The translations under genes and the position numbers were made by a program. This document shows, piece after piece, positions 3,102-52,988 of a stretch of DNA of 64,000 nt. The DNA is from Candidatus Liptonbacteria bacterium (lineage in GTDB: Bacteria; Patescibacteriota; Minisyncoccia; UBA6257; 2-01-FULL-56-20), in contig JACPLI010000014.1 in NCBI GenBank assembly GCA_016186635.1, forward strand, positions 804 through 64,803. The letters are read 5' to 3'. The first letter of the stretch is position 1; every line of letters begins with the position of its first letter. The notes below the pieces were generated by a model that saw only the letters and a list, made by a program, of their open reading frames with translations, did no database searches and was not told the origin of the DNA.

Positions 3102-3130
3102 TCCCCGCCGAACGGTGAAAGTTTAGTGCA

Positions 3131-3171
3131 ACAAGCCCTCGAGGGAAATTCTCTCGAGGGTCTTGCTTTTT
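3131..3171 (+). terminator. rho-independent terminator
   Basis: caagccctcgaggg-aaattct-ctcgagggtcttg hairpin followed by cttttt, 30 nt after stop of 2259-3101. Confidence 0.6.
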
Positions 3172-3227
3172 AAGAGGTCCAACTCCACGAGTCACATTCA
3201 CTACACTATCAGAGCGATCGCTCGCGT

Positions 3228-3275
3228 AGTGTAGCAGCCCCCGTTTTTCGACAGTGTAGCAACCCCCGTTTTTCG
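3228..3275 (+). repeat. tandem direct repeat 2 x ~24 bp
   Basis: agtgtagcagcccccgtttttcgac / agtgtagcaacccccgtttttcg, ~75 nt upstream of ORF 3350. Confidence 0.6.
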
Positions 3276-3349
3276 CTGGAAGCCGGATGTCCGGGTACAG
3301 TTGTGGTATCTTACAATCAGTTGTTTCAAACTTTTAACCTTTTGTATTT

Positions 3350-3966: not shown

Positions 3967-4000
3967 GGAAGTCCGACTTCCTTACGGAAGTCGGACTTCT
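3967..4000. terminator. perfect hairpin between convergent genes (terminator-like, no T tract)
   Basis: ggaagtccgacttcc-ttac-ggaagtcggacttc, 15-bp perfect inverted repeat between 3892 and gyrA stop at 4037. Confidence 0.35.
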
Positions 4001-4036: not shown

Positions 4037-6610
4037 CTAAATCACCACCACGCCAGCGACTCTATCGCCGGAGTTGAGGTTCATAATCCGCACGCCCTGC
4101 GCGGAGCGGCCCGTCTGGCGGACGCTTTTGAGCTCCGTGCGGATGACCTGCCCCTTTGCCGAGAGCGCGAGGAGTTCCGTCTCCTCGCCGAGGACGATGC
4201 CCGCAACCACCTTTCCCGTCTTCTCCGTCACCTTCGCCGTGCGAATCCCGGAGCCGCCGCGGTGCTGGGTTTTGTATTCCTTGAGCGGCGTCCGCTTGCC
4301 GAACCCCTTTTCCATCACCGCGAGGAGCTCCGCCGTGTCGCTCTTCTTCACCACGTCGAACCCCGCAACCGCGTCGCCGTGGCGAAGCCGGATGGCGCGC
4401 ACGCCCGCGGCGCCGCGCCCCATGGGCCTCGCCTGCGACTCCGCAAAGCGGATGGACTGGCCCTTCTCCGTCACGAGCACCACTTGGTCATCGCCCTTCG
4501 AGAGCCGGACCCACTTCAGCATGTCGCCTTTTTTTCCGCCGGAGGCGGATCCGGAGGTCCCTTTCCCGCCAGAGGCGGGTCCGCCTCGGGCGGAGGCGGA
4601 GAGCTTCATCCCGATAATCCCCGTGCGCCGGATATTTTCAAAGTCCTTCAAAGCGGTTTTCTTTATCATGCCGTTTTTGGTCACCATCACGAGATAGCGA
4701 TGAGCGATGAGTGATGAGTGATGAGTCTCCGATGCCTTGTTTCTTGCCCCTTGCTCGCCCCGTGGCGAAGCTGTACGGGGTTCCTTGTTACTCGATGGCA
4801 CATTGACGATCGCGCTTATGTTCTCGTCTGCGGGAATCTCAAGGAAATTGTGAATCGCTTTCCCCTTCGCGGTGCGGCTCGCGGCGGGAATCTCATACGC
4901 GCGCGTTTCGAATACTCTCCCGCGGCCGGTGAAGAAGAGTATCCGGTCGTGCGTGTTCGCGTGGAAGAAGTGCGAGAGGAAATCCTCCTCGGCGACATCA
5001 GACCCAATAAGCCCCTTGCCGCCACGCCGCTGGGCTTTGAAGGTGTCGGGCGGGAGGCGCTTCACATACCCCGACGCGGAGAAGGTAATAATTGCCTCTT
5101 CCTCGGGCACGAGGTCCTCGTCGGTCATCTCCTTCAAGGCATGCGCGACCACGTGCGTCCGGCGCGCCTCGCCATACTTCGCCTTGAGTTCCATGAGCTC
5201 CTTTTTCACCACCTCAAGCATCCGCGTGGGACTCTTCAAAATGAGCGTGAGTTCCTTGATGAGCGTGCGTTTTTCTTTAAGCTCGGCTTCGATTTTCTGC
5301 CGCTCCAATGCCGCGAGCGTCTGGAGCTTCATTTCCAAAATCGCGGCTGCCTGCGCCTCCGAGAGCGTGAAGTGCTTCATCAAGTTCGCCCTCGCGTCCT
5401 CGCGGTCCTTCGATTTCTTGATGGTGGCAATCACTTTGTCTATCGCATCAAGCGCCTTTGCGAGCCCCTCCAAAATATGCGCCCGCTCCTCCGCCCGCTT
5501 CAAGTCAAACTGCGTGCGGCGCTTCACCACCTCCCGCCGGTGCGCGACGTACGCGAGGAGCATCTCCTTCAAAGAGAAGAGTTCCGGCTGGATGCCGTCC
5601 CGCAAGGCAATCATGTTGAAATGGAAATCCTTCTGGAGGTCGGAGTGCTGGTAGAGCTGGTTTAAGATTTTCTGCGGCGCGGCATCGGACTTTAGTTCCA
5701 CCACGATGCGGAGCCCCTCGCGGTCGGACTCGTCGCGAAGGTCGCGGATGCCCTCGATTCTCTTCTCCTGCACAAGTTCCGCGATGTGCTTCACGAGCTC
5801 GGACTTGTTCACCTGGTAGGGAATCTCCGTAATCACGATGTCGAACCCCGCGCGCGTACTCTCTCCCTTCTTTCGCTCCACAATCTCCGCCTTCGCCCGG
5901 GTCGTGACCGCCCCCCGTCCCGTCGCGTATGCCGCCTTCACTGCCGCGCGGTCGTAAATCACGCCGCCCGTGGGAAAATCCGGCCCCTTCACATATTCGA
6001 GCAAATCCTCCGCCGCGGCGTTCGGCTTTTCGATAAGGAGCAGGGTTGCATCCACCACCTCCACCAAGTTGTGCGGCGGGATTGAGGTTGCCATCCCCAC
6101 CGCAATGCCCAAGGTGCCGTTCACGAGGAGGTTCGGAACCTTCGCAGGAAGCACCTTCGGCTCATCGCGGGTCGCATCGTAGTTCGGCTGCCAGTCCACC
6201 GTGTCTTTCTCGATATCAAACAGCATCTCCTCCGCGACTTTCGAGAGGCGCGCCTCCGTGTACCGCATCGCGGCGGGAGAATCCCCGTCCTGTGAACCAA
6301 AATTACCCTGGCCCCACACAAGGGGGTATCGCATGGAGAAGTCCTGCGCCATCCGCGCCAGCGTGTCGTAAATCGCCACGTCGCCGTGCGGGTGGTACTT
6401 CGCCATCGTCTCGCCCACCACGTTTGCCGACTTCCTGAATTTCGCGAGATGCGTGAGCCCTATGGACCACATGGTCCACAGCACCCTCCGGTGCACCGGC
6501 TTCAGCCCGTCGCGCACGTCCGGCAGGGCGCGCGCGACAATCACTGACATCGCGTAGTCGAGGTAGGATTCCTTTAACTCACTGGTGATTTCCCGTTTTT
6601 CGATATTCAT
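4037..6610 (-). CDS. gyrA: DNA gyrase subunit A
   Basis: 857 aa; N-terminal EITSELKESYLDYAMSVIVARALPDVRDGLKPVHRRVLW and catalytic-Tyr region AAMRYTEARL are GyrA hallmarks; C-terminal beta-pinwheel repeats. Confidence 0.95.
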   Translation of the reverse strand: MNIEKREITSELKESYLDYAMSVIVARALPDVRDGLKPVHRRVLWTMWSIGLTHLAKFRKSANVVGETMAKYHPHGDVAIYDTLARMAQDFSMRYPLVWGQGNFGSQDGDSPAAMRYTEARLSKVAEEMLFDIEKDTVDWQPNYDATRDEPKVLPAKVPNLLVNGTLGIAVGMATSIPPHNLVEVVDATLLLIEKPNAAAEDLLEYVKGPDFPTGGVIYDRAAVKAAYATGRGAVTTRAKAEIVERKKGESTRAGFDIVITEIPYQVNKSELVKHIAELVQEKRIEGIRDLRDESDREGLRIVVELKSDAAPQKILNQLYQHSDLQKDFHFNMIALRDGIQPELFSLKEMLLAYVAHRREVVKRRTQFDLKRAEERAHILEGLAKALDAIDKVIATIKKSKDREDARANLMKHFTLSEAQAAAILEMKLQTLAALERQKIEAELKEKRTLIKELTLILKSPTRMLEVVKKELMELKAKYGEARRTHVVAHALKEMTDEDLVPEEEAIITFSASGYVKRLPPDTFKAQRRGGKGLIGSDVAEEDFLSHFFHANTHDRILFFTGRGRVFETRAYEIPAASRTAKGKAIHNFLEIPADENISAIVNVPSSNKEPRTASPRGEQGARNKASETHHSSLIAHRYLVMVTKNGMIKKTALKDFENIRRTGIIGMKLSASARGGPASGGKGTSGSASGGKKGDMLKWVRLSKGDDQVVLVTEKGQSIRFAESQARPMGRGAAGVRAIRLRHGDAVAGFDVVKKSDTAELLAVMEKGFGKRTPLKEYKTQHRGGSGIRTAKVTEKTGKVVAGIVLGEETELLALSAKGQVIRTELKSVRQTGRSAQGVRIMNLNSGDRVAGVVVI
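4531..4600. repeat. GC-rich hairpin element inside gyrA (family CCGCCnnaGGCGGaTCC / TCCGCCTCGGGCGGA)
   Basis: ccgccggaggcggatcc ... cgccagaggcgggtccgcctcgggcggaggcgga; same motifs intergenic at 7629 and 33391; here translated as SASARGGPASGGKGTSGSASGGKKG. Confidence 0.55.
4697..4727. repeat. heptamer tandem array (GATGAGY)x4 in frame within gyrA
   Basis: gcgatgagcgatgagtgatgagtgatgagtc; minus-strand reading gives ETHHSSLIAHRY inside GyrA. Confidence 0.8.
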
Positions 6611-9080: not shown

Positions 9081-9488
9081 GCCGCGGTAGCTCAGTGGTA
9101 GAGCATTCGCCTGAACTCTTCGGGCACCGGTTCAGTAATGAGCCGGAGAAAACTGGGTGAATTCGGGGGAACTTCTTTACTTTAAGAACAACCCCGAGCC
9201 AATCCTTCGCTAAAGCTATGGATTGCAAGCAAGCTACATGAGAAGGCTTGCCTGCTGTAGCCTTCGGCGAAGGCAGGTGTAGAGACTATCCCTTCGGGGA
9301 GTACTCTCCGACATGGGTCGGAGCGGAAGCGCCCAGCTCCATGCCAGATTTCAGACACCAGAAATCAGCTATCGGACAATGCATCCGATATCTGAAATCC
9401 GAGATCTAATTTCTGAACGTGGATGATGATATAGTCCAAACTCGCAAGGAAGAGCGATTGGTCGGGTGTTCGATTCACCCCCGCGGCA
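9081..9488 (+). tRNA. tRNA-Phe (anticodon GAA) interrupted by a group I intron; exons about 9081-9112 and 9449-9488
   Basis: exon1 GCCGCGG-TA-GCTC-AGTGGTA-GAGC-A-TTCGC-CT; exon2 GAAGA-GCGAT-TGGTC-GGGTG-TTCGATT-CACCC-CCGCGGC-A; joined gives a canonical cloverleaf with loop CTGAAGA; no CCA encoded. Confidence 0.75.
9113..9448 (+). other. group I intron in tRNA anticodon loop (after U33), ~336 nt, no ORF
   Basis: 5' exon ends in U and its GCCU can pair with intron GGGC (P1 with U.G); P7-like strands AGACTA (approx 9288) and TAGTC (9432-9436); last intron nt G. Confidence 0.65.
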
Positions 9489-18190: not shown

Positions 18191-20026
18191 ATGTCGAATC
18201 TCACTAAAAACATTTTCTGGGCAATCGCCACGCTGTTCGCCATCTCCTTCGTGTTTTCCATGTTCGCGGACACCGCAGGCGCGCCGGAGAAATTAAGTTT
18301 GAGCCAGCTCGCGCAGAAAATTGCGGCGGGGGAGGTGAAGGAAATTACCGTAAACGGCGACGACCTTGTCATCAAACTCCAGGACGGGAAGCCCGCGTCG
18401 GCAAAAAAGGAGAGTGAGGCGGGGCTCACAGAAACCTTCAAAAACCTCGGCGTGGAGCCGGCGATGCTCCAGCGCGTGAACGTGAGCGTACAGAGCCAGT
18501 CGGGGTGGCAGTTTTGGGCAGGAGTCCTTATTCCCACGCTCCTCCCCATCATTCTCATCGGCTTTTTCTTCTGGCTCATGTTCCGGCAGGCGCGCACGGG
18601 CGTAAACCAGGCGTTCAGCTTCGGGCGCTCGAATATCCGCCTCACCACCTTTGACAAGGAAAAAATCACGTTTAAGGACGTGGCAGGACTCAAGGAAGCA
18701 AAAGAAGAGCTTGTGGAAATCGTGGACTTTTTGAAAAATCCGAAAAAGTTCCTTGACCTCGGCGCGCGCATTCCCCGCGGCGTGCTCCTCATGGGTCCTC
18801 CGGGCACGGGGAAAACCTTAATTGCAAGGGCAACCGCGGGCGAGAGCAACGTCCCCTTCTTCCATATCTCGGCGTCGGAATTCGTGGAGATGTTCGTGGG
18901 AGTTGGGGCTTCGCGGACACGGGACGCCTTCACGGTCGCAAAGAAAGCCGCGCCCGCAATCCTTTTTATTGACGAGATTGACGCCGTCGGGCGCCAGCGC
19001 GGCGCGGGGCTCGGAGGCGGGAACGACGAACGCGAGCAAACCTTGAACCAGATTTTGGTGGAGCTTGACGGCTTCGACCGCGATACGAGGGTAATAATTT
19101 TGGCGGCTACGAACCGACCTGATATTTTGGACCCCGCACTCCTCCGCCCCGGACGATTCGACCGGCGCGTGGTCCTCGACCTTCCCGACTTGAACGACCG
19201 CGAGGCAATACTCAAAATCCACGCGAGGGAGAAAACGCTCGCGGGCGCGGTCGACCTCCGGAAAGTCGCCGTGCGCACGCCGGGATTCTCCGGCGCTGAC
19301 CTCGCTAACTTAATGAATGAAGGCGCCATCTTCGCCGCGCGGCAGAATAAGAAGCATATCTCGCAGGACGACCTCTTCAGCTCGGTTGAAAAAGTGCTCC
19401 TCGGCCCCGAGCGAAAAAGCCGCGCCATCAGCCCCCGCGAAAAAGAAATCACCGCCTACCACGAAGCAGGGCATGCCCTGACCGCCGCCTCCCTCAAAGA
19501 CGCGGACCCCGTGCACAAAATTTCCATCATCAGCCGCGGCATGGCGGGGGGATATACGATGAAGCTCCCTCTCGAAGACCAGCATCTCCGCACGCGCCAG
19601 CAGTTCCTCGCCGACCTCGCCATGATGCTCGGCGGCTACGTGTCGGAAAAACTTATGTTTGGAGATATCTCCACCGGCGCCTCGAGCGACCTCAAGGAAG
19701 CGACGCACCTCGCGCGGAAGCTCGTTACCCGCTACGGCATGAGCGAAAAACTGGGGCCGCAAACCTTCGGGAAAACCGAAGAGCTCGTCTTCCTCGGGCG
19801 CGAAATCGCCGTGGAGAAAGATTACTCCGAAAAAGTCGCGGCGGAGATAGACCATGAAGTGCGGTCATTTATCTCCCGCGCGCGCGCCACGGCGGAGAAA
19901 CTCCTCAAAACCCACAAAGCCGCGCTCAAAGCAATCGCCACAACGCTCGTCGAGAAAGAAACGCTTGAGCAGGAAGAATTCCTCGCGGTTTTAAAACCCT
20001 TCAAAATTAAGCCGGTTGCAGCATAG
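18191..20026 (+). CDS. ftsH: ATP-dependent zinc metalloprotease FtsH
   Basis: 611 aa; Walker [13 protein letters not shown] region, zinc motif HEAGHAL; two N-terminal TM helices. Confidence 0.95.
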
Positions 20027-20071
20027 ACGCGGTAAATAGAAAGTGGTGGATAATGGGAGTATACTAGGCGT

Positions 20072-21553
20072 ATGAAGATATCGCGCGGGAGTTGCCCAAC
20101 GACGCTCGTGCTCCTCGCAGCCACTGCGGGGGTAGTGGCAACTATCGCAACGTTTACAAATCCGGCCGCCGCAGCCACGCCCGACACACAGGTGAAGTAT
20201 GACCGGAAAATGCCGCTCCCGCCCGCGGAATTCGTGCCGCTTAGCACAGTGGAAATAAAAAGCATAACCGCGCCGCAGCTGTGCCATGACGCAACTTTCC
20301 AGAATCAATTTAGAGTTGACCCGGCGTTCCAAAAGAAGCACCTTGCCGATTGGAAAAAGCAGGCGCAGTGCGCACAAGGAATCGCGAAAGCGACTGCGCT
20401 TGGGCAAGAAATCTCGGGCATAGACACTGCGGCGTATAACTCTGTTCGAGCGCTTAAAGAATCGCTTGAGCAGACAAAACAAGCTCTTGCAAAAAGAACA
20501 ACAATTGACGGGCTTCTTCTTGTCGCAATTCCAATCGGCGGATTCGTACCGAACGGGTATCAAAGCGCAAAGAGTATCGAGGTGAAATGCGTAAGTGGTG
20601 TAGAAAAGGCCGTCGGTAGGGGCATCTTCACGGAAGGATTTGAGTTTAAACCCGTAACGCCGGAGCAGACTGCGAAAATAGCTGAACTGAAAAAAAATGC
20701 GGCAGAGATTCAAGCGAGATATAACGGACTTGCGACCGACTACGCAAAGAACGGCGGCAAGGGCAGTTTTTTGGAAGCAACCTGGGCGCGCGCGGCGGCT
20801 ATAGCGGCTGATTTCGGTAATTTGCTTAATTCTGCCAAAGCAGATTTTGTGTTGCTCACGCCAGAGGCAGTTGACCTCCGGCATTCGGACTTAAAGCTGG
20901 AGCAAAAGTTTTCTATTTCTTTCAGGATGACTCCTGGCAAGCAGGTAGAGGTACCGTCGCTCCCGAAAATCATACGAGACCACGGAGGCGTGCCTTCCGG
21001 CGCGGTATTCGAAACGGGAACCGTTAAGGTCGGCGACAAAACCTTTTTAGGGCTGCCAATACCGGCGACGCACACTTTGGACGGGTTTCGCAAAGGAGTT
21101 GATATGCTTCTCAAGAGTTTCACCACTGGCGAGTTCTTTGTGTTTGATGAAAAGACTAACGAGTTCGTACCGGATAAAAAAAAGGAAGGGGACATATTCG
21201 CTATCAGTGAAGCCGCATTGAAACTAAGACGCGATGCATTGCAAGCGAAACTAGATGCGCTCAAAACCGAGAATTATAACTGTACAACCTCCGCCACACC
21301 CCCCCCACCCACCAATCTCCAGTCTTCGCTCACTCCAAGCGTCCAGGGATTGAGAGAGTATGTTGAAGAACTTAAAAGAGAGCGCGACGGGCTAAAAGTG
21401 CAGATTGAGGGAATCAGGCGGCAACGGAATTATTCGCCCTCGCCATTGCTGGAGCAACAGTCAAATACCACCCCTTTGCGTCGGCAGCTCGGGGACATTG
21501 CGGAAGCGCTCGGAAATATTCTCAAGGCGCTCCAAGAAGCGAGTATGTTATAG
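20072..21553 (+). CDS. hypothetical secreted protein (paralog A) with conserved C-terminal module
   Basis: signal peptide MKISRGSCPTTLVLLAATAGVVA; C-terminus LKVQIEGIRRQRNYSPSPLLEQQSN shared with 21561-23030. Confidence 0.55.
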   Translation: MKISRGSCPTTLVLLAATAGVVATIATFTNPAAAATPDTQVKYDRKMPLPPAEFVPLSTVEIKSITAPQLCHDATFQNQFRVDPAFQKKHLADWKKQAQCAQGIAKATALGQEISGIDTAAYNSVRALKESLEQTKQALAKRTTIDGLLLVAIPIGGFVPNGYQSAKSIEVKCVSGVEKAVGRGIFTEGFEFKPVTPEQTAKIAELKKNAAEIQARYNGLATDYAKNGGKGSFLEATWARAAAIAADFGNLLNSAKADFVLLTPEAVDLRHSDLKLEQKFSISFRMTPGKQVEVPSLPKIIRDHGGVPSGAVFETGTVKVGDKTFLGLPIPATHTLDGFRKGVDMLLKSFTTGEFFVFDEKTNEFVPDKKKEGDIFAISEAALKLRRDALQAKLDALKTENYNCTTSATPPPPTNLQSSLTPSVQGLREYVEELKRERDGLKVQIEGIRRQRNYSPSPLLEQQSNTTPLRRQLGDIAEALGNILKALQEASML

Positions 21554-21560
21554 TGAAAGG

Positions 21561-23030
21561 ATGCAAAAACTAGCACGAACGGGACTCTTCTTCGCGGGCA
21601 TCGTAGGCATTTTTGTGCTTCTTTCCCTTTACACCCCACACGCACAGGCGCAAACCCCACAAGGAAACGAAGGAGCGGAAATCACGTACCCCTACTACAA
21701 AAAAACAGAGCGATGGGTCAATACCTGCTCCAGTGAAAGTCCGGTGTGTAACTCAAACCAGAGTAAGCGCATAGAGGAAAAAGTGGGGAAGTCCACGCGA
21801 TTTAGTTTCCTTAAAAAACTGGCTACGAATTTGATTCCGGGAAGCAGCCTGTTTACCTCGGCGAATCTCAAAAGTTCGGAGAAGGAAACGACGCTCTACC
21901 AGCCATGGTATGCCAAAAGTTATGGCATTACGAGTTGCAGGAGAGAACATACCTATACCACTTTTTGGGGGGCGCTTTCAATATTGAAGGGGAAAATCGG
22001 CACCTCCGAAGGAAAGACGAGGTCGTTCTGCACTGGAGAAAGAGGAAGGGACGAGGGGATAGAGCTTACCGACGTTCCCCCTGATATCGAAACGCGTTCT
22101 TACCGAGGCGCGCTGACTACCTCCATCCCCTCGCAGGGGATGACCACGGAACACGCGGTGAAAGAAGATTCTCGCGCACTACTCGCGCTCACGGTTCCCG
22201 AAGCGATGACGGTGGCGCCCACCACCATGAGAGAAGTGTGCAAGACATTCGCGAAAAACCTTCCAAAAACCTGCGCAAACACGGCAGTGTCGACTCTTGT
22301 GCCCGGCGGCATGCTCATCACCGCGAGCGGCATACTCGAGCCGATAACCGACGCGATACAACACCTCCTCTTCAAAGATAACCCGAGGTGGCAAGTACCG
22401 CTTTCGGTGCAAGCGTATTCGCTTGTTTCCACTCCGTCCGGAGCAGAAGAAAGGCTGGTTCCGTGCAACGCGGTGAGAGTTGCAGGAAAAACATTAGATG
22501 CGAACTGCGGCGTCACGGTATCGGTAAGTAAGAAGCAGTTGGTGCGAGACGTAACTCCAAGCACGAATGTTCCATACTATCGGTACGAACTCGCCGTTTC
22601 CGGGCCGGCCATAAAACAAGCATCGGCGCCGACTCGCCCGCTTCTCGGAGTTATTTCCCAGTCTCTCGGCATCACACAGGACGACGACGCCGAGGAAGAA
22701 GGAGCAGTTGTCTTCGACCAAGACGGATTCCTTGTGATTGAGGGATGGGACAATGAAGACTTGCCGATCGAGTCCCCTCTCGCGTCGCTCATTCAAGAAC
22801 TCCGCGAGCGCGTGAGAACGCTTGAAACAAGCCGCAATGCGCTCAAGGTGCAGATCGAGGGGATTAGGAAACAGCGGAATTATTCTCCTTCACCATTACT
22901 CGAACAGCAATCAAATGCCGCACCGCAACCACAGCCGTATGCCGCAACGCCGCAACAGCGCGCACAGCTTGGGAACATCATGGAGACACTCCAAAGCATT
23001 CTCGGGGCGATGGAGGAGGCGGTGCGGTAG
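21561..23030 (+). CDS. hypothetical secreted protein (paralog B) with conserved C-terminal module
   Basis: start at ATG 21561 (SD gaaagga); signal peptide LFFAGIVGIFVLLSLYTPHAQA; C-terminus LKVQIEGIRKQRNYSPSPLLEQQSN. Confidence 0.55.
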   Translation: MQKLARTGLFFAGIVGIFVLLSLYTPHAQAQTPQGNEGAEITYPYYKKTERWVNTCSSESPVCNSNQSKRIEEKVGKSTRFSFLKKLATNLIPGSSLFTSANLKSSEKETTLYQPWYAKSYGITSCRREHTYTTFWGALSILKGKIGTSEGKTRSFCTGERGRDEGIELTDVPPDIETRSYRGALTTSIPSQGMTTEHAVKEDSRALLALTVPEAMTVAPTTMREVCKTFAKNLPKTCANTAVSTLVPGGMLITASGILEPITDAIQHLLFKDNPRWQVPLSVQAYSLVSTPSGAEERLVPCNAVRVAGKTLDANCGVTVSVSKKQLVRDVTPSTNVPYYRYELAVSGPAIKQASAPTRPLLGVISQSLGITQDDDAEEEGAVVFDQDGFLVIEGWDNEDLPIESPLASLIQELRERVRTLETSRNALKVQIEGIRKQRNYSPSPLLEQQSNAAPQPQPYAATPQQRAQLGNIMETLQSILGAMEEAVR

Positions 23031-23145
23031 AACTCGTTGTACGTTTTCGGTTTCGCCGCCCGTATCGCTTCACGTTGACGTCTTACATATGCCCACACCG
23101 ATACGGGCTACGACACCGTCACCGCTCAACACCAAGTAAAATAAG

Positions 23146-23210
23146 TGGGCCAGGAAGGACTCGAACCTTCGATCCTCTTGGTATAAGCAAGATGCTTTAG
23201 CCGCTAAGTC
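23146..23210 (-). pseudogene. tRNA-like fragment (anticodon arm with loop CTTATAC, T-arm, acceptor 3' strand) lacking matching 5' half
   Basis: minus strand ...GCA-TCTTG-CTTATAC-CAAGA-GGATC-GAAGG-TTCGAGT-CCTTC-CTGGCCC-A; complementary GGGCCAG occurs only ~520 nt upstream (approx 23663-23669). Confidence 0.4.
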
Positions 23211-23256
23211 CCGACGCTCCGGTCGGGACCCCGACCCTGCAAGGCGTCGGGGCTAC
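23197..23256. repeat. double-hairpin element R copy 1 (CCCCGAC..GTCGGGG / TCCCGACC-GGAGC-GTCGGGA / CTTAGCGGCtAAAGCA)
   Basis: near-identical unit at 23591-23660; related hairpin at 28706-28740. Confidence 0.6.
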
Positions 23257-23258
23257 TG

Positions 23259-23329
23259 TGGGCGCACTAGGAATCGGACCTAGGTCGGGCGTGTATAAGA
23301 CGCCTGCTTTGCCATTAAGCTATGCGCCC
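23259..23329 (-). tRNA. tRNA-Ile with rare anticodon TAT (UAU)
   Basis: GGGCGCA-TA-GCTT-AATGGCA-AAGC-A-GGCGT-CTTATAC-ACGCC-CGAC-CTAGG-TCCGATT-CCTAG-TGCGCCC-A; unusual T-loop TCCGATT. Confidence 0.75.
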
Positions 23330-23583
23330 ATCCTTATCTTCCCATCTCTCACTATCTTCTCAAGATAATCCTTTCTTTTCAACCTTTTCAGTCGCCTTTC
23401 AATCTCGCGAGCTTTTGCAAGCGTTGGAAACTCTTGAGAAAAAACGAACGCGAGATTCCCAAGCCGCATCGTGGACGGCGTATGACCGCCGAAGTGGTGC
23501 GTTAATCTTGCACCAATGTCGGTGGTACTCCCCACGTAAAACCTCCCGTCCCGCCCATTCTGCAATATATACACCCAAGCCAT
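23320..23583 (-). CDS. GIY-YIG nuclease family protein (small YhbQ/UPF0213-like)
   Basis: from ATG 23583: MAWVYILQNGRDGRFYVGSTTDIGARLTHH = GIY-YIG core; stop codon TAG lies inside tRNA-Ile positions 8-10. Confidence 0.7.
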   Translation of the reverse strand: MAWVYILQNGRDGRFYVGSTTDIGARLTHHFGGHTPSTMRLGNLAFVFSQEFPTLAKAREIERRLKRLKRKDYLEKIVRDGKIRMGA

Positions 23584-23590
23584 AGTACCT

Positions 23591-23660
23591 GCTTTGCCGC
23601 TAAGTCCCGACGCTCCGAGGTCGGGAGGCCACACCCCCGACGTGCTAGTCGGGGCGTCGA
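23591..23660. repeat. double-hairpin element R copy 2
   Basis: gctttgccgctaagtcccgacgctccgaggtcggga...cccccgacgtgctagtcgggg. Confidence 0.6.
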
Positions 23661-23687
23661 CCCTACTGGCCCGCGCGCTCCCCACTC

Positions 23688-24275
23688 CTACTGCTTCACT
23701 ATCGCGTCAAACCGGTCCATTGCCTGCCCGGCTTGGCCGTTGAACGTGTTGATTGCCTGCACTTCCGCGTTAATCTGGTTCACGAGCACCGCTACCTGCT
23801 TCGCCGAGCCGGGGACTCCCTTGAAACGCCCCTCGAGCGCCTGCAGGAGCTCGCTCAAGTAGTTGCTGTAGCTGATAAGCTTGTTTAAAAGCGCCAAGCG
23901 GCTCGCGATGGACTCAAGCGCCGCCTGCCGCGCCTCGAAGGACTGAATGCCGGAGAGCGCCTTCGTCATCGCGCCGATTTCGTCTGCGAGCGCCACCGCC
24001 TGGTTGCGAATCGCCTCACTCTGCTTCGTGGCATCGAGTGTAATGGCAAGCGCCTCGGAGAACTTCCCCTTCTTGTCGAGCTCGCTGATTTTCTCGATGC
24101 TCGTTCGGGAATCGTTCGAAAGGTTCACAATGTTTTGGGAGATGAGCGCTCCCCGAAGGCGGGCGTCTTGGAACTCCGAAGGGATTCCTTGCGAGAAGGA
24201 AAAGAGCCGGCTCGCGCCGTAGCCGGCGGCCACAATTACCACAAACGCAAGGAATAATTTGGTGCGGCGGGACAT
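23688..24275 (-). CDS. hypothetical membrane-anchored coiled-coil protein
   Basis: start at internal ATG 24275 (MSRRTKLFLAFVVIVAAGYGAS = TM anchor); remainder Ala/Gln/Leu-rich helical; track N-terminal extension overlaps tRNA-Gly. Confidence 0.45.
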   Translation of the reverse strand: MSRRTKLFLAFVVIVAAGYGASRLFSFSQGIPSEFQDARLRGALISQNIVNLSNDSRTSIEKISELDKKGKFSEALAITLDATKQSEAIRNQAVALADEIGAMTKALSGIQSFEARQAALESIASRLALLNKLISYSNYLSELLQALEGRFKGVPGSAKQVAVLVNQINAEVQAINTFNGQAGQAMDRFDAIVKQ

Positions 24276-24369
24276 GCGTTCTTCTCCTTTGTAGCGCATC
24301 TTGGGGAAATAATCAACGGGTCTTGAGTAAGCGGTAGGGAGTAGGTAGTATGTGGTAGGGAAAACCGAA

Positions 24370-24443
24370 GCGGGCGTAGTATAGTGGCAGTACGGAATCC
24401 TTCCAAGATTCAGGTACGGGTCCGATTCCCGTCGCCCGCTCCA
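24370..24443 (+). tRNA. tRNA-Gly (anticodon TCC), CCA encoded
   Basis: GCGGGCG-TA-GTAT-AGTGGCA-GTAC-G-GAATC-CTTCCAA-GATTC-AGGT-ACGGG-TCCGATT-CCCGT-CGCCCGC-T-CCA; coordinates shifted +1 to agree with ORF track. Confidence 0.85.
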
Positions 24444-24448
24444 CACCA

Positions 24449-25660
24449 CTATTTCACCTTCGCCCGGAAAAAGTGGCGCTTGCCGACTCTGATTGTCTCG
24501 CCGCCGGAAAAAGAAGGCGCCATATGCGGGTCTTTGAGCGCCGCGCCCTCGACATGCACGCCTCCCTGCGCAATGAGCCGCCGCGCCTCGCTTTTACTTT
24601 TCACGACGCCGGTTTTCAGCACCACGTCAAGGAGAGGCAACTTCCCCACTTCCAGATAGGGAATATCCGCATTGTTCACGTCTCTCTCCGAAAAAATTTT
24701 TTTCCAGTCCTTTCGGGCTTTTTCTGCATTTTTCTCACTACAGTATGTCTTTACAACCTCAAAGGCCAAGGCAAGCTTTGCGTCTCGAGGATTATCAAAC
24801 TCTTTAAGCTTCCTAATCTCATCAAGTGGCATAGACGTTGACAATTCTGCAACTCCAGAAATCATCCCATCCGGCATAGCCATCACTCGCCCGAACATTT
24901 CACCCGGGCTATCGTCAAGATTCACTAAACTTGCCTCAGTTTTACTCAATTTTTTCCCAGTATTGGAATCCACGAGCAATTTCACCGCAACAAAGAAATT
25001 ATCCTTCCACACTTGGTCTCGAAAAGCGCGGCCGACATTCATATTAAATATCTGGTCACGACCACCAATTTCTACATTCACTCCAAGTTCTCTACCGTCC
25101 CATCCCTGCAAAAGGGGGTAAATAAATTCTCTTAGTTCTATAGATTTATGTTCTTCTAATCTCTTCTTAAAATCAGCTCGCTCTAACAAATTCTGAACAG
25201 AAAAAGCACCAAGTAGGGATTTGAAAAAATCTTCGAACTTCATCTTTCCAAACCACTCCGAGTTATATCTTACTTGTGCAGCATTCTCGCCTGAAAAATT
25301 CAGAATGCGAGATACCTGCTTCTTGAAAGTCTTCCAGTTCTCTTTAATCTGTTTTGGCGTGAGGGGTTGCCGCGGCGCCATCTTATCCGTCGGGTCTCCA
25401 ACCCGAGCAGTAAAATCTCCGATAAGCAGAATCGCTTTATGGCCAAGATCCTGAAATCTACGAAGGGTCCATAAGCCCGCCGCATGGCCAAGGTGAAGAT
25501 GCGAGCTAGTGGGATCGATACCGAAGTAGAAAGACAGCCGCCGACCGCTTAACAACTCTTTCTCAAACGCTTCAACGGATGGGTACACCATACTGAGCGA
25601 TCGCGTAAGAGCCTCTCTAACAAGCCTTTTGTCTTTCTTCGCCCCCATTTCTTTCTCCAT
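24449..25660 (-). CDS. tyrS: tyrosine--tRNA ligase
   Basis: GIDPTSSHLHLGH (HIGH region), KLSKT (KMSKS), C-terminal S4-like domain; start placed at ATG 25660. Confidence 0.9.
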   Translation of the reverse strand: MEKEMGAKKDKRLVREALTRSLSMVYPSVEAFEKELLSGRRLSFYFGIDPTSSHLHLGHAAGLWTLRRFQDLGHKAILLIGDFTARVGDPTDKMAPRQPLTPKQIKENWKTFKKQVSRILNFSGENAAQVRYNSEWFGKMKFEDFFKSLLGAFSVQNLLERADFKKRLEEHKSIELREFIYPLLQGWDGRELGVNVEIGGRDQIFNMNVGRAFRDQVWKDNFFVAVKLLVDSNTGKKLSKTEASLVNLDDSPGEMFGRVMAMPDGMISGVAELSTSMPLDEIRKLKEFDNPRDAKLALAFEVVKTYCSEKNAEKARKDWKKIFSERDVNNADIPYLEVGKLPLLDVVLKTGVVKSKSEARRLIAQGGVHVEGAALKDPHMAPSFSGGETIRVGKRHFFRAKVK

Positions 25661-28690: not shown

Positions 28691-28705
28691 ATTTTGGGTA
28701 ATAAC

Positions 28706-28800
28706 CCCGACGCTTCGGTCGGGGCTCCGACTCCCGCCGCAACGGGACGCCGGAGCTAATAACTTATGACTTATGACAAATGACCTTTCTCACTCTCACT
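28706..28800. repeat. hairpin ccccgacgcttcggtcgggg plus heptamer arrays (CTTATGA, CTCACTC, CTCTTAC)
   Basis: between hppA start and nusA stop; nusA C-terminal tail [14 protein letters not shown] is encoded by the arrays. Confidence 0.5.
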
Positions 28801-51747: not shown

Positions 51748-52988
51748 AACGCCTCCTCTATCTCCTCATCATCCTCGCAGTCGCGGGCGCCGTCGTCCTC
51801 GCCGGGTTTTTCCTGCGCTACCGCAATGAGCCGGTTGCGCCTTCTCCGGCGGAAGAAATGGCGGGAGAAGAGCTCCCCGCGCCAGAGCTTGCCCCGACTG
51901 AAACGTCGGGGGGCGCCACCGCCGAGATGCCTCCCGCGCCCGCCTCTCCTTCCGAGCCCGTCCTCCTCGGCGACGGACTCCGCATCTTGTATCAAAACCC
52001 TGTTTTTGCACTTGCGCCCGCTCCAAACGGCGGCGTGCTGGTGATGGGCATCGACGGGGCGGTTGCCGCAGTGCGGGACACCGCCGCCACCTTGAGCCCC
52101 ACGCCGATTGCAGAGCTCCAAAAAGCGCTTTTTTCCGCGGGCGGCGTAAAGGCGCTTGCGCTCTTCGGCGACCGCACTGCGCCGCAAGCGGGCGTCTTCG
52201 ATGTCGCCTCGAAAACGTGGCAGCCGTTCCCATTCTCCATCATTGACGCGGCGTGGTCGCCGAACGACTCCCGCGCCGCATATCTCGCGCGGCAGAACAG
52301 CGGCGCTGTCGTGCTGGGAGTGCTCGATCTCGCGAACGCGAAGGCAAAACCCCAGGAACTTCTTCGCGCGCGCTTCGCGGACATCACGCTTGCATGGCCC
52401 TTGCCCGACCTTATCTTTCTCCAAGAGCGCCCCAGCGCGGCGGTTCCGGCGCGCGCGTGGATTTTTGACATGAAAAAGAAAATGCTTGCGCCGTTCGCGG
52501 AAGAACAGCGCGGACTCGCAGTGCGGTGGCCTGCCCCGGCCGGAGCGTCGGGGCCCCCGGGAGAATGGCTCGCCTTCGCCGCGGGAGATGCGGGACGGGG
52601 CGGGCGGCTGTACCTCGTCTCACCGCAGGGGACCATCCGCGAGGAGCTTACCTTCCTCACGCTTCCGCAAAAGTGCGCCTCCTTCGGCGGCGGCGCGGCG
52701 CCAAAGGCAGCCTCCGCGGCGCCCTCATCCGCTCCCGCCACTCTTATCTGCGCCGTCCCGCGCGACGCAGATACGCTCAATGTGAGCGCGCTCCCGGACG
52801 CGTACTGGAAACGGGCGCTTTTCACTGAAGATGTCTTCTTAATGATAAACCTTGCGACGGGCGCGACCCGAACTCTCTTTGACGATGCCGCTCGCCCGCT
52901 CGACGCCGACATGCTCGCCGTCTCGGGCGACACGCTCTATTTCATAAACCGCTACGACCAGAAACTGTACTCGCTCCAGATTAAATAG
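51744..52988 (+). CDS. hypothetical membrane-anchored/secreted protein, last gene of T4SS-like cluster
   Basis: start ATG 51744; TM LLYLLIILAVAGAVVLAGFFL; Ala/Pro-rich; no known domain. Confidence 0.45.
   Translation: MKRLLYLLIILAVAGAVVLAGFFLRYRNEPVAPSPAEEMAGEELPAPELAPTETSGGATAEMPPAPASPSEPVLLGDGLRILYQNPVFALAPAPNGGVLVMGIDGAVAAVRDTAATLSPTPIAELQKALFSAGGVKALALFGDRTAPQAGVFDVASKTWQPFPFSIIDAAWSPNDSRAAYLARQNSGAVVLGVLDLANAKAKPQELLRARFADITLAWPLPDLIFLQERPSAAVPARAWIFDMKKKMLAPFAEEQRGLAVRWPAPAGASGPPGEWLAFAAGDAGRGGRLYLVSPQGTIREELTFLTLPQKCASFGGGAAPKAASAAPSSAPATLICAVPRDADTLNVSALPDAYWKRALFTEDVFLMINLATGATRTLFDDAARPLDADMLAVSGDTLYFINRYDQKLYSLQIK

Follow-up and report, generated by a model that had tools for sequence, protein, structure and literature searches.

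In a 64,000-nucleotide (nt) stretch of DNA from Candidatus Liptonbacteria (contig JACPLI010000014.1; the window, below), a mobile cassette made of a GIY-YIG nuclease gene and a tRNA gene has split the resident gene for tRNA-Ile(UAU) and supplies a working copy of it, a conclusion that is well supported by the data presented here. The resident tRNA has the acceptor stem GGGCCAG/CTGGCCC and its gene is split in the D stem, between positions 10 and 11 (10/11 below); the cassette, ~450 nt long, has three parts: a double hairpin followed by a short D-arm remnant, an open reading frame (ORF) for a protein of 87 amino acids (aa), and a complete tRNA-Ile(UAU). At a probability of about 0.68, this cassette would be of the homing type, similar to that of SegB from phage T4, and would have split the Liptonbacteria gene while bringing along a tRNA to replace it. 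Many different tRNA genes across the candidate phyla radiation (CPR, Patescibacteria) show this design again and, as far as found, it is apparently undescribed: searches of the literature on GIY-YIG proteins and tRNA genes in CPR, on UPF0213/COG2827, and on palindromic elements in Patescibacteria retrieved no description of such an arrangement.

Regarding the layout of the locus (window positions 23146-23672), it is read on the minus strand, from 23672 to 23146. It opens with the orphaned 5' piece of the resident tRNA, positions 1-10 (GGGCCAG TAG, 23663-23672), which forms the perfect complement of CTGGCCC at 23153-23147 and equals positions 1-10 of the intact tRNA in a relative, L173. Double hairpin A (CCCCGAC..GTCGGGG, then TCCCGAC..GTCGGGA; 23605-23662) follows exactly between tRNA positions 10 and 11, where L172 and L005 have homologous hairpins; next come a copy of D-arm positions 11-26 (CTTAGCGGCAAAGCA, 23590-23604), which is a direct repeat of 23208-23193 with one indel, and the spacer GGTACT (23584-23589), a short 5' leader of the ORF that has the same letters in L172 and reads TTACT in L005. 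The nuclease gene (23320-23583), which encodes a catalytic domain only, overlaps by 10 nt the complete inner tRNA-Ile(UAU) (23259-23329, acceptor stem GGGCGCA/TGCGCCC), and its stop codon TAG is U8-A9-G10 of the tRNA; the earlier note on this DNA, made from the letters alone, had already placed the stop inside the tRNA. Beyond the inner tRNA there are CAGTAG (23253-23258), a second copy of resident positions 5-10 with similar junctions in L124, L088 and L136; double hairpin B (23209-23252), again exactly at 10/11, whose second hairpin and flank are near-identical to those of hairpin A; and the orphaned 3' piece of the resident tRNA, from position 11 to the discriminator (23146-23208), with the anticodon loop CTTATAC and the 3' acceptor strand CTGGCCC.

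The inner tRNA has a clean cloverleaf and scores 65.6 bits with the Rfam tRNA model (E = 1.7e-13), in agreement with ARAGORN, and it differs from the resident tRNA in all stems; it is presumably the replacement carried by the cassette and the working gene. The earlier note had recognized this intact tRNA and its UAU anticodon, and both programs return that anticodon; its view that the anticodon is rare does not hold within CPR, since tRNA-Ile(UAU) occurs on at least eight CPR contigs (L005 2755-2829, L131, L165, L172 717-789, L173 3729-3802, L175 4300-4371, L086, L160) and is not unusual in the group. As for the 3' piece, ARAGORN and Rfam extend it to 23146-23217 and call it, weakly (38.1 bits), a second tRNA-Ile(UAU); in this contiguous fold an arm of the hairpin acts as acceptor strand, with one C-C mismatch and two G-U pairs, and the D stem has 3 bp. 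Joining 23672-23663 to 23208-23146, on the other hand, gives a flawless cloverleaf, in which 7/7 pairs of the acceptor stem are Watson-Crick and the D stem has 4 bp, and the best reading of the second call is a remnant of the split resident gene. The note had seen in the downstream piece a tRNA-like part without its 5' half and in the GGGCCAG ~520 nt away the matching acceptor strand; the joined halves bear it out. A tRNA-Ile(UAU) reads AUA with no need of lysidine. Within the 64-kb window there is neither an ORF with the SGGxDS PP-loop of tilS nor a tRNA with the anticodon CAU, a result that is uninformative for the whole genome.

The arrangement does not come from misassembly: Logan contig L001 (run SRR12113385), an independent assembly, matches the window base for base from 18980 to 23775, which rules out an assembly artefact. 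A second contig, L002 (SRR12113420), compared at the level of gene calls only, has the same ORF at the same position and matching neighbouring gene calls.

The 87-aa protein matches the Pfam GIY-YIG family PF01541 over residues 1-71 (E = 7.4e-14, 52.3 bits with a cutoff of 22.6), and the database record of the exact protein, from a Candidatus Liptonbacteria metagenome-assembled genome, is annotated as a GIY-YIG nuclease. Conservation of the catalytic Arg and Glu, which the note had proposed to check, is complete: Y5, Y16, G18, R26, H30 and E62 are invariant across 20 homologues that are 41-89% identical to the window protein. The dN/dS of 0.16 between the window and L172 copies shows purifying selection on the ORF, whose synonymous sites have reached saturation between these two and L005. 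The C-terminal tail after DGxI(K/R) is variable among homologues, as expected if translation enters whichever tRNA comes next. The nearest solved structures are those of UPF0213 proteins (1zg2, BH0048, E = 3e-5; 1ywl, EF2693, E = 8e-5), and a tblastn search of 50,697 phage records retrieved no homologue of the ORF. In a tree of the ORFs, clustering by tRNA partner is partial (an Arg-GCG group, and the window with L172), the protein being too short for a firm tree. Finally, co-transcription of the ORF with the inner tRNA, as the earlier note proposed, is plausible from their overlap; a promoter and terminator scan of 22900-24500 gave nothing near the locus that exceeds the shuffled expectation.

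The gene upstream of the locus encodes a protein of 195-203 aa with close homologues, and these led to two relatives that show the site with and without the cassette. In L173, where the homologue (203 aa) is 89% identical, the order of genes is that of the window: TyrRS, tRNA-Gly(UCC), the upstream gene, tRNA-Ile(UAU), a large protein on the opposite strand, and FtsH. Its tRNA-Ile is uninterrupted (GGGCCAGTAGCTTAGCGGTTAAAGCA CCGAG CTTATAC CTCGG ... CTGGCCCA), with no ORF and no hairpin; by sequence and synteny L173 is the empty site, and its acceptor stem and D arm are those of the two outer pieces of the window, which identifies these as the resident gene. L172, in turn, has an ORF 90% identical to that of the window after the same upstream gene; its left junction is as in the window (GGGCCAGTAG, the hairpins, then CTTAGTGGCAGAGCA GGTACT and the ORF from its ATG), its inner tRNA is overlapped by the ORF by 10 nt, and the resident 3' half is absent. 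Over the last 366 nt of the upstream gene, nt identity to the window is 86.6% for L173 and 82.8% for L172, and all three genomes are at 82-87%; they are thus about equally related, so that the filled and empty states are polymorphic among close relatives. A search for further syntenic relatives through TyrRS in a collection of species-representative genomes returned only matches of 38-43% identity on short contigs.

The cassette is found well beyond this site. Eight further homologues of the ORF (49-67% identity to the window protein) led to eight distinct loci (L005, L009, L010, L011, L015, L019, L021 and L025), and all eight have the ORF beside a tRNA on the same strand, plus a fragment of that tRNA broken up by the hairpin pair. 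Scanning metagenomes for this pair yielded at least 10 more ORF loci with the same three parts. Across the 19 loci compared, window and L172 included, the partner tRNAs belong to at least 10 species (Ile-UAU, Ile-GAU, Val-GAC/CAC/UAC, Arg-GCG/UCU, Met-CAU, Asn-GUU, Lys-UUU), and the exact 10-nt overlap with the stop on U8-A9-G10 is seen in 10 of them. The hairpins sit precisely at 10/11 (after TAG) or at 15/16 (after GCTCAG or GTTCAA), and the target is not duplicated. The complete layout of the window is repeated in L124 (Ile-GAU) and L088 (Arg-GCG), namely a resident 5' piece, the ORF, a complete inner tRNA of the same anticodon, and a resident 3' piece; in both, the outer halves pair together (6/7 in L124; 7/7 in L088, including one G-U) and are unlike the acceptor of the inner tRNA. 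In L005, which belongs to Wildermuthbacteria and has different flanking genes, the similarity to the window and L172 sets in right after TAG, at the first base of the hairpin, and ceases where the inner tRNA ends (3'), and this shared start and end give the limits of the transferable unit. Together, the empty site in L173, the same insertion in L172, and the recurrence at many tRNA genes substantiate the suggestion of the earlier note that the locus is the scar of a mobile GIY-YIG/tRNA module.

Loci with tRNA and hairpins and no ORF were also recorded (L072, L085, L095, L097, L098, L108, L113, L115, L135, L089, L136, L118); they have either an orphan 5' fragment with the hairpin at 10/11 or 15/16, a few nt before an intact tRNA, or an intact tRNA followed by a second copy interrupted by the hairpin. 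Two other genes were noticed beside tRNAs: one in L025 that runs off the end of the locus (3110-3282), next to tRNA-Gly(GCC) and with Pfam matches to GIY-YIG and TsaD, and in L005, a faint LAGLIDADG-like ORF (4182-4892) just after tRNA-Val(UAC). Both may be further nuclease genes attached to tRNA genes.

The hairpins form a family of their own. In the window, 6 matches to CCCGAC..GTCGGG were counted where 0.18 are expected, and the 21-nt GGAGCGTCGGGACTTAGCGGC, which spans the border between hairpin and D arm, is present exactly twice with 0 expected; the earlier note had correctly counted two double-hairpin copies around the unit and took them for its brackets; beyond bracketing it, each lies exactly at 10/11 of a resident piece and belongs to this wider palindrome family of CPR-like contigs. 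Another pair of the family stands in the window at 28700-28750 (minus strand), in the spacer between two minus-strand genes and with TTATTA on both sides, and single hairpins of the same stem type are at 3971-3996, 9306-9323 and 51892-51911, so the family is present in this genome outside the tRNA locus. Elsewhere, the double hairpin was found in at least 120 metagenome loci, mostly of 35-58% GC and many from groundwater. The same pattern gave 25 matches in viral contigs, all in contigs of 59-71% GC and none with a GIY-YIG or tRNA context, and these look like chance or unrelated matches.

The flanks, context and neighbouring ORFs were counted over the 128 hairpin pairs in loci L052-L171, and all figures out of 128 hold among the matches listed. 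About a quarter of these occurrences have a tRNA within 150 nt, and none of the 128 pairs lies inside an otherwise complete tRNA; for roughly 1/5, the flanks are duplicated nearby, nearly always as tRNA pieces beside an intact tRNA. The insertion flanks have the palindromic consensus T-Y-A-R/Y-W-G-A (slash, point of insertion), which would fit a dimeric enzyme, and the D arm partly matches it at two sites, GTAG/CTCA and TCAG/TTGG. Long ORFs host 34 of the 128 occurrences, and in 26 of these 34 the length is divisible by 3. In-frame hairpins were seen in DnaE, PurL, UvrA, RecG and DnaK (L155, 4541-4582; L067; L056; L073; L140, 6792-6833), the proteins being known by translation, with no family search; each adds ~14-18 residues, such as PRREAVGVPTKASGK in DnaK. 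No published report of in-frame palindromes in CPR bacteria was found. As for the hairpins attached to the cassette, a nested variant of the second one is 34/35 identical between L005 and L172 and occurs nowhere else in ~170 loci; such a match, despite saturated synonymous sites in the ORF, indicates that the hairpin is a conserved component of the unit and not a random later insertion.

From the analogy with SegB we infer the cleavage target and the chemistry of integration as follows. The nuclease would act as a free-standing homing endonuclease of the T4 SegB type and would cut the conserved DNA of tRNA genes in the D arm, at 10/11 or 15/16; the break would be repaired from a copy bearing the cassette, the leftover pieces would lose the target through the hairpin that sits where the cut was made, and the inner tRNA would take over the function of the destroyed gene. 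Carrying a whole replacement tRNA would permit invasion even where the 5' part brought by the cassette does not pair with the 3' acceptor strand of the resident, and it is proposed that the tRNA is whole because such a chimeric acceptor stem would not pair. RNase P, in cutting where the inner tRNA begins, would take away the last three codons and the stop of the ORF, and this may keep expression of the nuclease low.

It should be noted that several observations weigh against the homing-type reading. Neither Pfam nor NCBIfam detects a DNA-binding or any further domain in the 87-aa protein, unlike in I-TevI or SegB, so that sequence-specific homing is not assured. The two tRNAs of L088, inner and resident, have the same sequence over positions 8-65 and differ only in the acceptor stem; the D arm is shared, and the target would be present in the cassette's own tRNA too. 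The sister relationship of the window, L172 and L173 is based on only 366 nt. Resident positions 5-26 and the hairpin are duplicated on both sides of the cassette, which simple homing does not predict; the history may have been either a target duplication of ~22 nt (positions 5-26) followed by hairpin insertions, or the insertion at 10/11 of a unit bounded by hairpins. Loci lacking the ORF are common and have the same layout (5' fragment, hairpin, D-arm remnant, a few nt, full tRNA), one not easily derived by deletion of the ORF. Finally, the hairpin family is mostly far from any GIY-YIG gene, including inside protein genes.

The main alternative, rather unlikely on balance, is that nuclease and hairpins together make up a transposon-like system akin to the "REPtron" of repetitive extragenic palindromic (REP) sequences and their REP-associated tyrosine transposase (RAYT), with a GIY-YIG nuclease in place of the tyrosine transposase. 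A small nuclease, probably a dimer, would have the hairpins or their palindromic target as its substrate; hairpin, cargo and hairpin would be a composite element inserted at TAG/CTT of the resident tRNA, and the hairpins without ORF elsewhere would be its non-autonomous derivatives. It is consistent with this that in the window and in L124 homologous hairpin pairs, directly oriented, flank the cassette on either side, that hairpin insertions are precise, without target duplication and with the flank consensus given above, and that the hairpin beside the ORF is far more conserved than the synonymous sites of the ORF; a structured DNA partner would also make sense for a protein reduced to its catalytic domain. 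Also in its favour, 13 of the 128 hairpin pairs (~10%) have a GIY-YIG match within ~120 nt; against it, ~90% have no such gene nearby. Moreover, the hairpins are one-sided at many ORF loci (L005, L009, L010, L015, L019, L025), the two hairpin pairs of L088 at 15/16 differ in type and order, which suggests independent insertions at a hot spot, and no GIY-YIG transposase is known.

A related proposal, doubtful at present, is that of a single nuclease-hairpin system in which the nuclease cuts T-Y-A-R/Y-W-G-A sites, those of the D arm at 10/11 and 15/16 among them, and hairpin DNA is copied into the breaks and immunizes them. If true, this would be a nuclease-driven counterpart of REP/RAYT, and it would account at once for the splitting of tRNA genes by units that carry replacement tRNAs and for the hairpins lying in frame in dnaK, uvrA, dnaE, recG and purL across CPR.

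An ordinary host locus, without any mobility, is improbable. Here, a housekeeping GIY-YIG nuclease would be co-transcribed with tRNAs, and the fragments would be decayed tandem duplicates colonized by a genome-wide palindrome; purifying selection on the ORF, the independent spread of the hairpin family, and the occurrence of small UPF0213-type GIY-YIG proteins in ordinary bacteria are all in its favour. However, it does not account for the empty site in a close relative with conserved synteny, nor for the three loci whose outer halves are complementary to one another but not to the inner tRNA, which requires insertion into the gene and not tandem decay; the ORF is, in addition, found at at least 10 tRNA species in unrelated gene neighbourhoods, and the unit has boundaries common to different CPR lineages.

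The earlier note had also considered a disrupted intron-containing tRNA, and the idea of a split or intron-containing gene, where the ~455 nt between positions 10 and 11 are removed from the precursor or the halves are brought together in trans, and production of the outer tRNA-Ile(UAU) continues, has very little left to recommend it: the joined halves are a perfect tRNA, the 3' piece keeps full pairing in its anticodon and T stems, with compensatory changes relative to L173, and the ends of the insertion can pair over ~6 bp (CGACGC/GCGTCG), but an Rfam scan of 22500-24600 at E ≤ 1 matched no group I or II intron, other ribozyme or other RNA family in the insertion (its matches were to tRNAs, apart from two put down to chance), the break lies inside the D stem and not in the anticodon loop where bacterial tRNA introns reside (PMC13011429), no pair among the 128 interrupts an otherwise complete tRNA, only one half survives at most loci, and the complete tRNA of the same anticodon inside the insertion makes the outer one redundant.

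Regarding the neighbouring genes, the longest ORF of the upstream neighbour (23688-24449, minus strand) overlaps tRNA-Gly(UCC) (24370-24443, plus strand); given that the database homologues are of 195-203 aa, the true start of this gene is further downstream, near 24275-24299. On the plus strand, 20072-21553 and 21405-23030 are two adjacent large ORFs with no Pfam match and with a near-identical C-terminal stretch (..LKVQIEGIR[RK]QRNYSPSPLLEQQSN..); in L173, a single 863-aa gene occupies the position of the two (20072-23030).

If the homing-type cassette is real, a very small selfish element of ~0.45 kb is able to disrupt a tRNA gene that is essential and single-copy within a minimal genome, and it could do so because it brings a working substitute, with a reading frame ending on the conserved U8-A9-G10 of that tRNA. 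It would follow, since tRNA finders call the leftover piece a second tRNA-Ile, that tRNA counts in CPR are inflated at such loci. The widespread small UPF0213-like GIY-YIG proteins would gain a testable role, with a link to the palindromes that lie in frame in CPR core genes.

Among known systems, REP families have been reviewed, some of them without a known mobilizing enzyme (PMC3733652). The hairpins resemble REP and the Rickettsia palindromic elements in being short, GC-rich, repeated palindromes that are often paired and that occur both between genes and in frame in conserved genes; they differ in their stems (CCCCGAC/GTCGGGG and NNCCGAC/GTCGGNN) and in their strong tie to positions 10/11 and 15/16 of the tRNA D arm, in orphan fragments, and to a GIY-YIG gene. 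No RAYT (IS200/IS605-type) transposase was noticed near the loci that were read, and no systematic search for it was made.

As for insertions in tRNA genes, Patescibacteria have group I introns in the anticodon loop, at 35/36 for a new class (PMC13011429). Like these introns, the cassette lies inside a tRNA gene and leaves a perfect tRNA upon removal, and some group I introns carry GIY-YIG homing endonucleases; unlike them, it has no detected ribozyme core and sits in the D stem at 10/11, and the whole tRNA inside the insertion makes splicing unnecessary. The comparison extends to integrative elements that target tRNA genes. Such phages and islands of the attP type measure kilobases, rely on integrases of the tyrosine or serine class, and as a rule duplicate the tRNA in its 3' part. 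Similarly to them, the cassette occupies a tRNA gene, preserves a working tRNA by duplicating a segment of it, and leaves an orphan fragment; it differs from them in its size of ~0.45 kb, in having no integrase, in duplicating or replacing the 5' part or the whole of the tRNA, and in carrying a GIY-YIG nuclease.

The protein itself is like the UPF0213/URI-domain proteins (BH0048, 1zg2; EF2693, 1ywl) in consisting of a single GIY-YIG domain and in its size class of ~90-107 aa, although the similarity is low. To our knowledge, these small proteins have no assigned function and no reported link to tRNA genes, tRNA fragments or hairpins. The closest parallel is SegB of phage T4, a GIY-YIG homing endonuclease whose free-standing gene lies within a cluster of tRNA genes and which recognizes a conserved motif of tRNA genes and spreads itself together with the flanking tRNA genes (PMC2330249). 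As in SegB and the other Seg proteins, the nuclease gene of the cassette stands free among tRNA genes, outside any intron, and its presence is polymorphic between close relatives. Unlike SegB, which targets a T-loop motif at the 3' end of the tRNA gene, the cassette has its break point in the D arm; it encodes 87 aa of catalytic domain only, its ORF overlaps a tRNA, the resident gene is split with hairpins in the pieces, and the host is a CPR bacterium instead of a phage. SegB is also much larger than the cassette protein, with a DNA-binding region of its own. In conclusion, the design that recurs at tRNA genes across CPR is akin to the free-standing GIY-YIG elements of the homing type that reside at tRNA genes.

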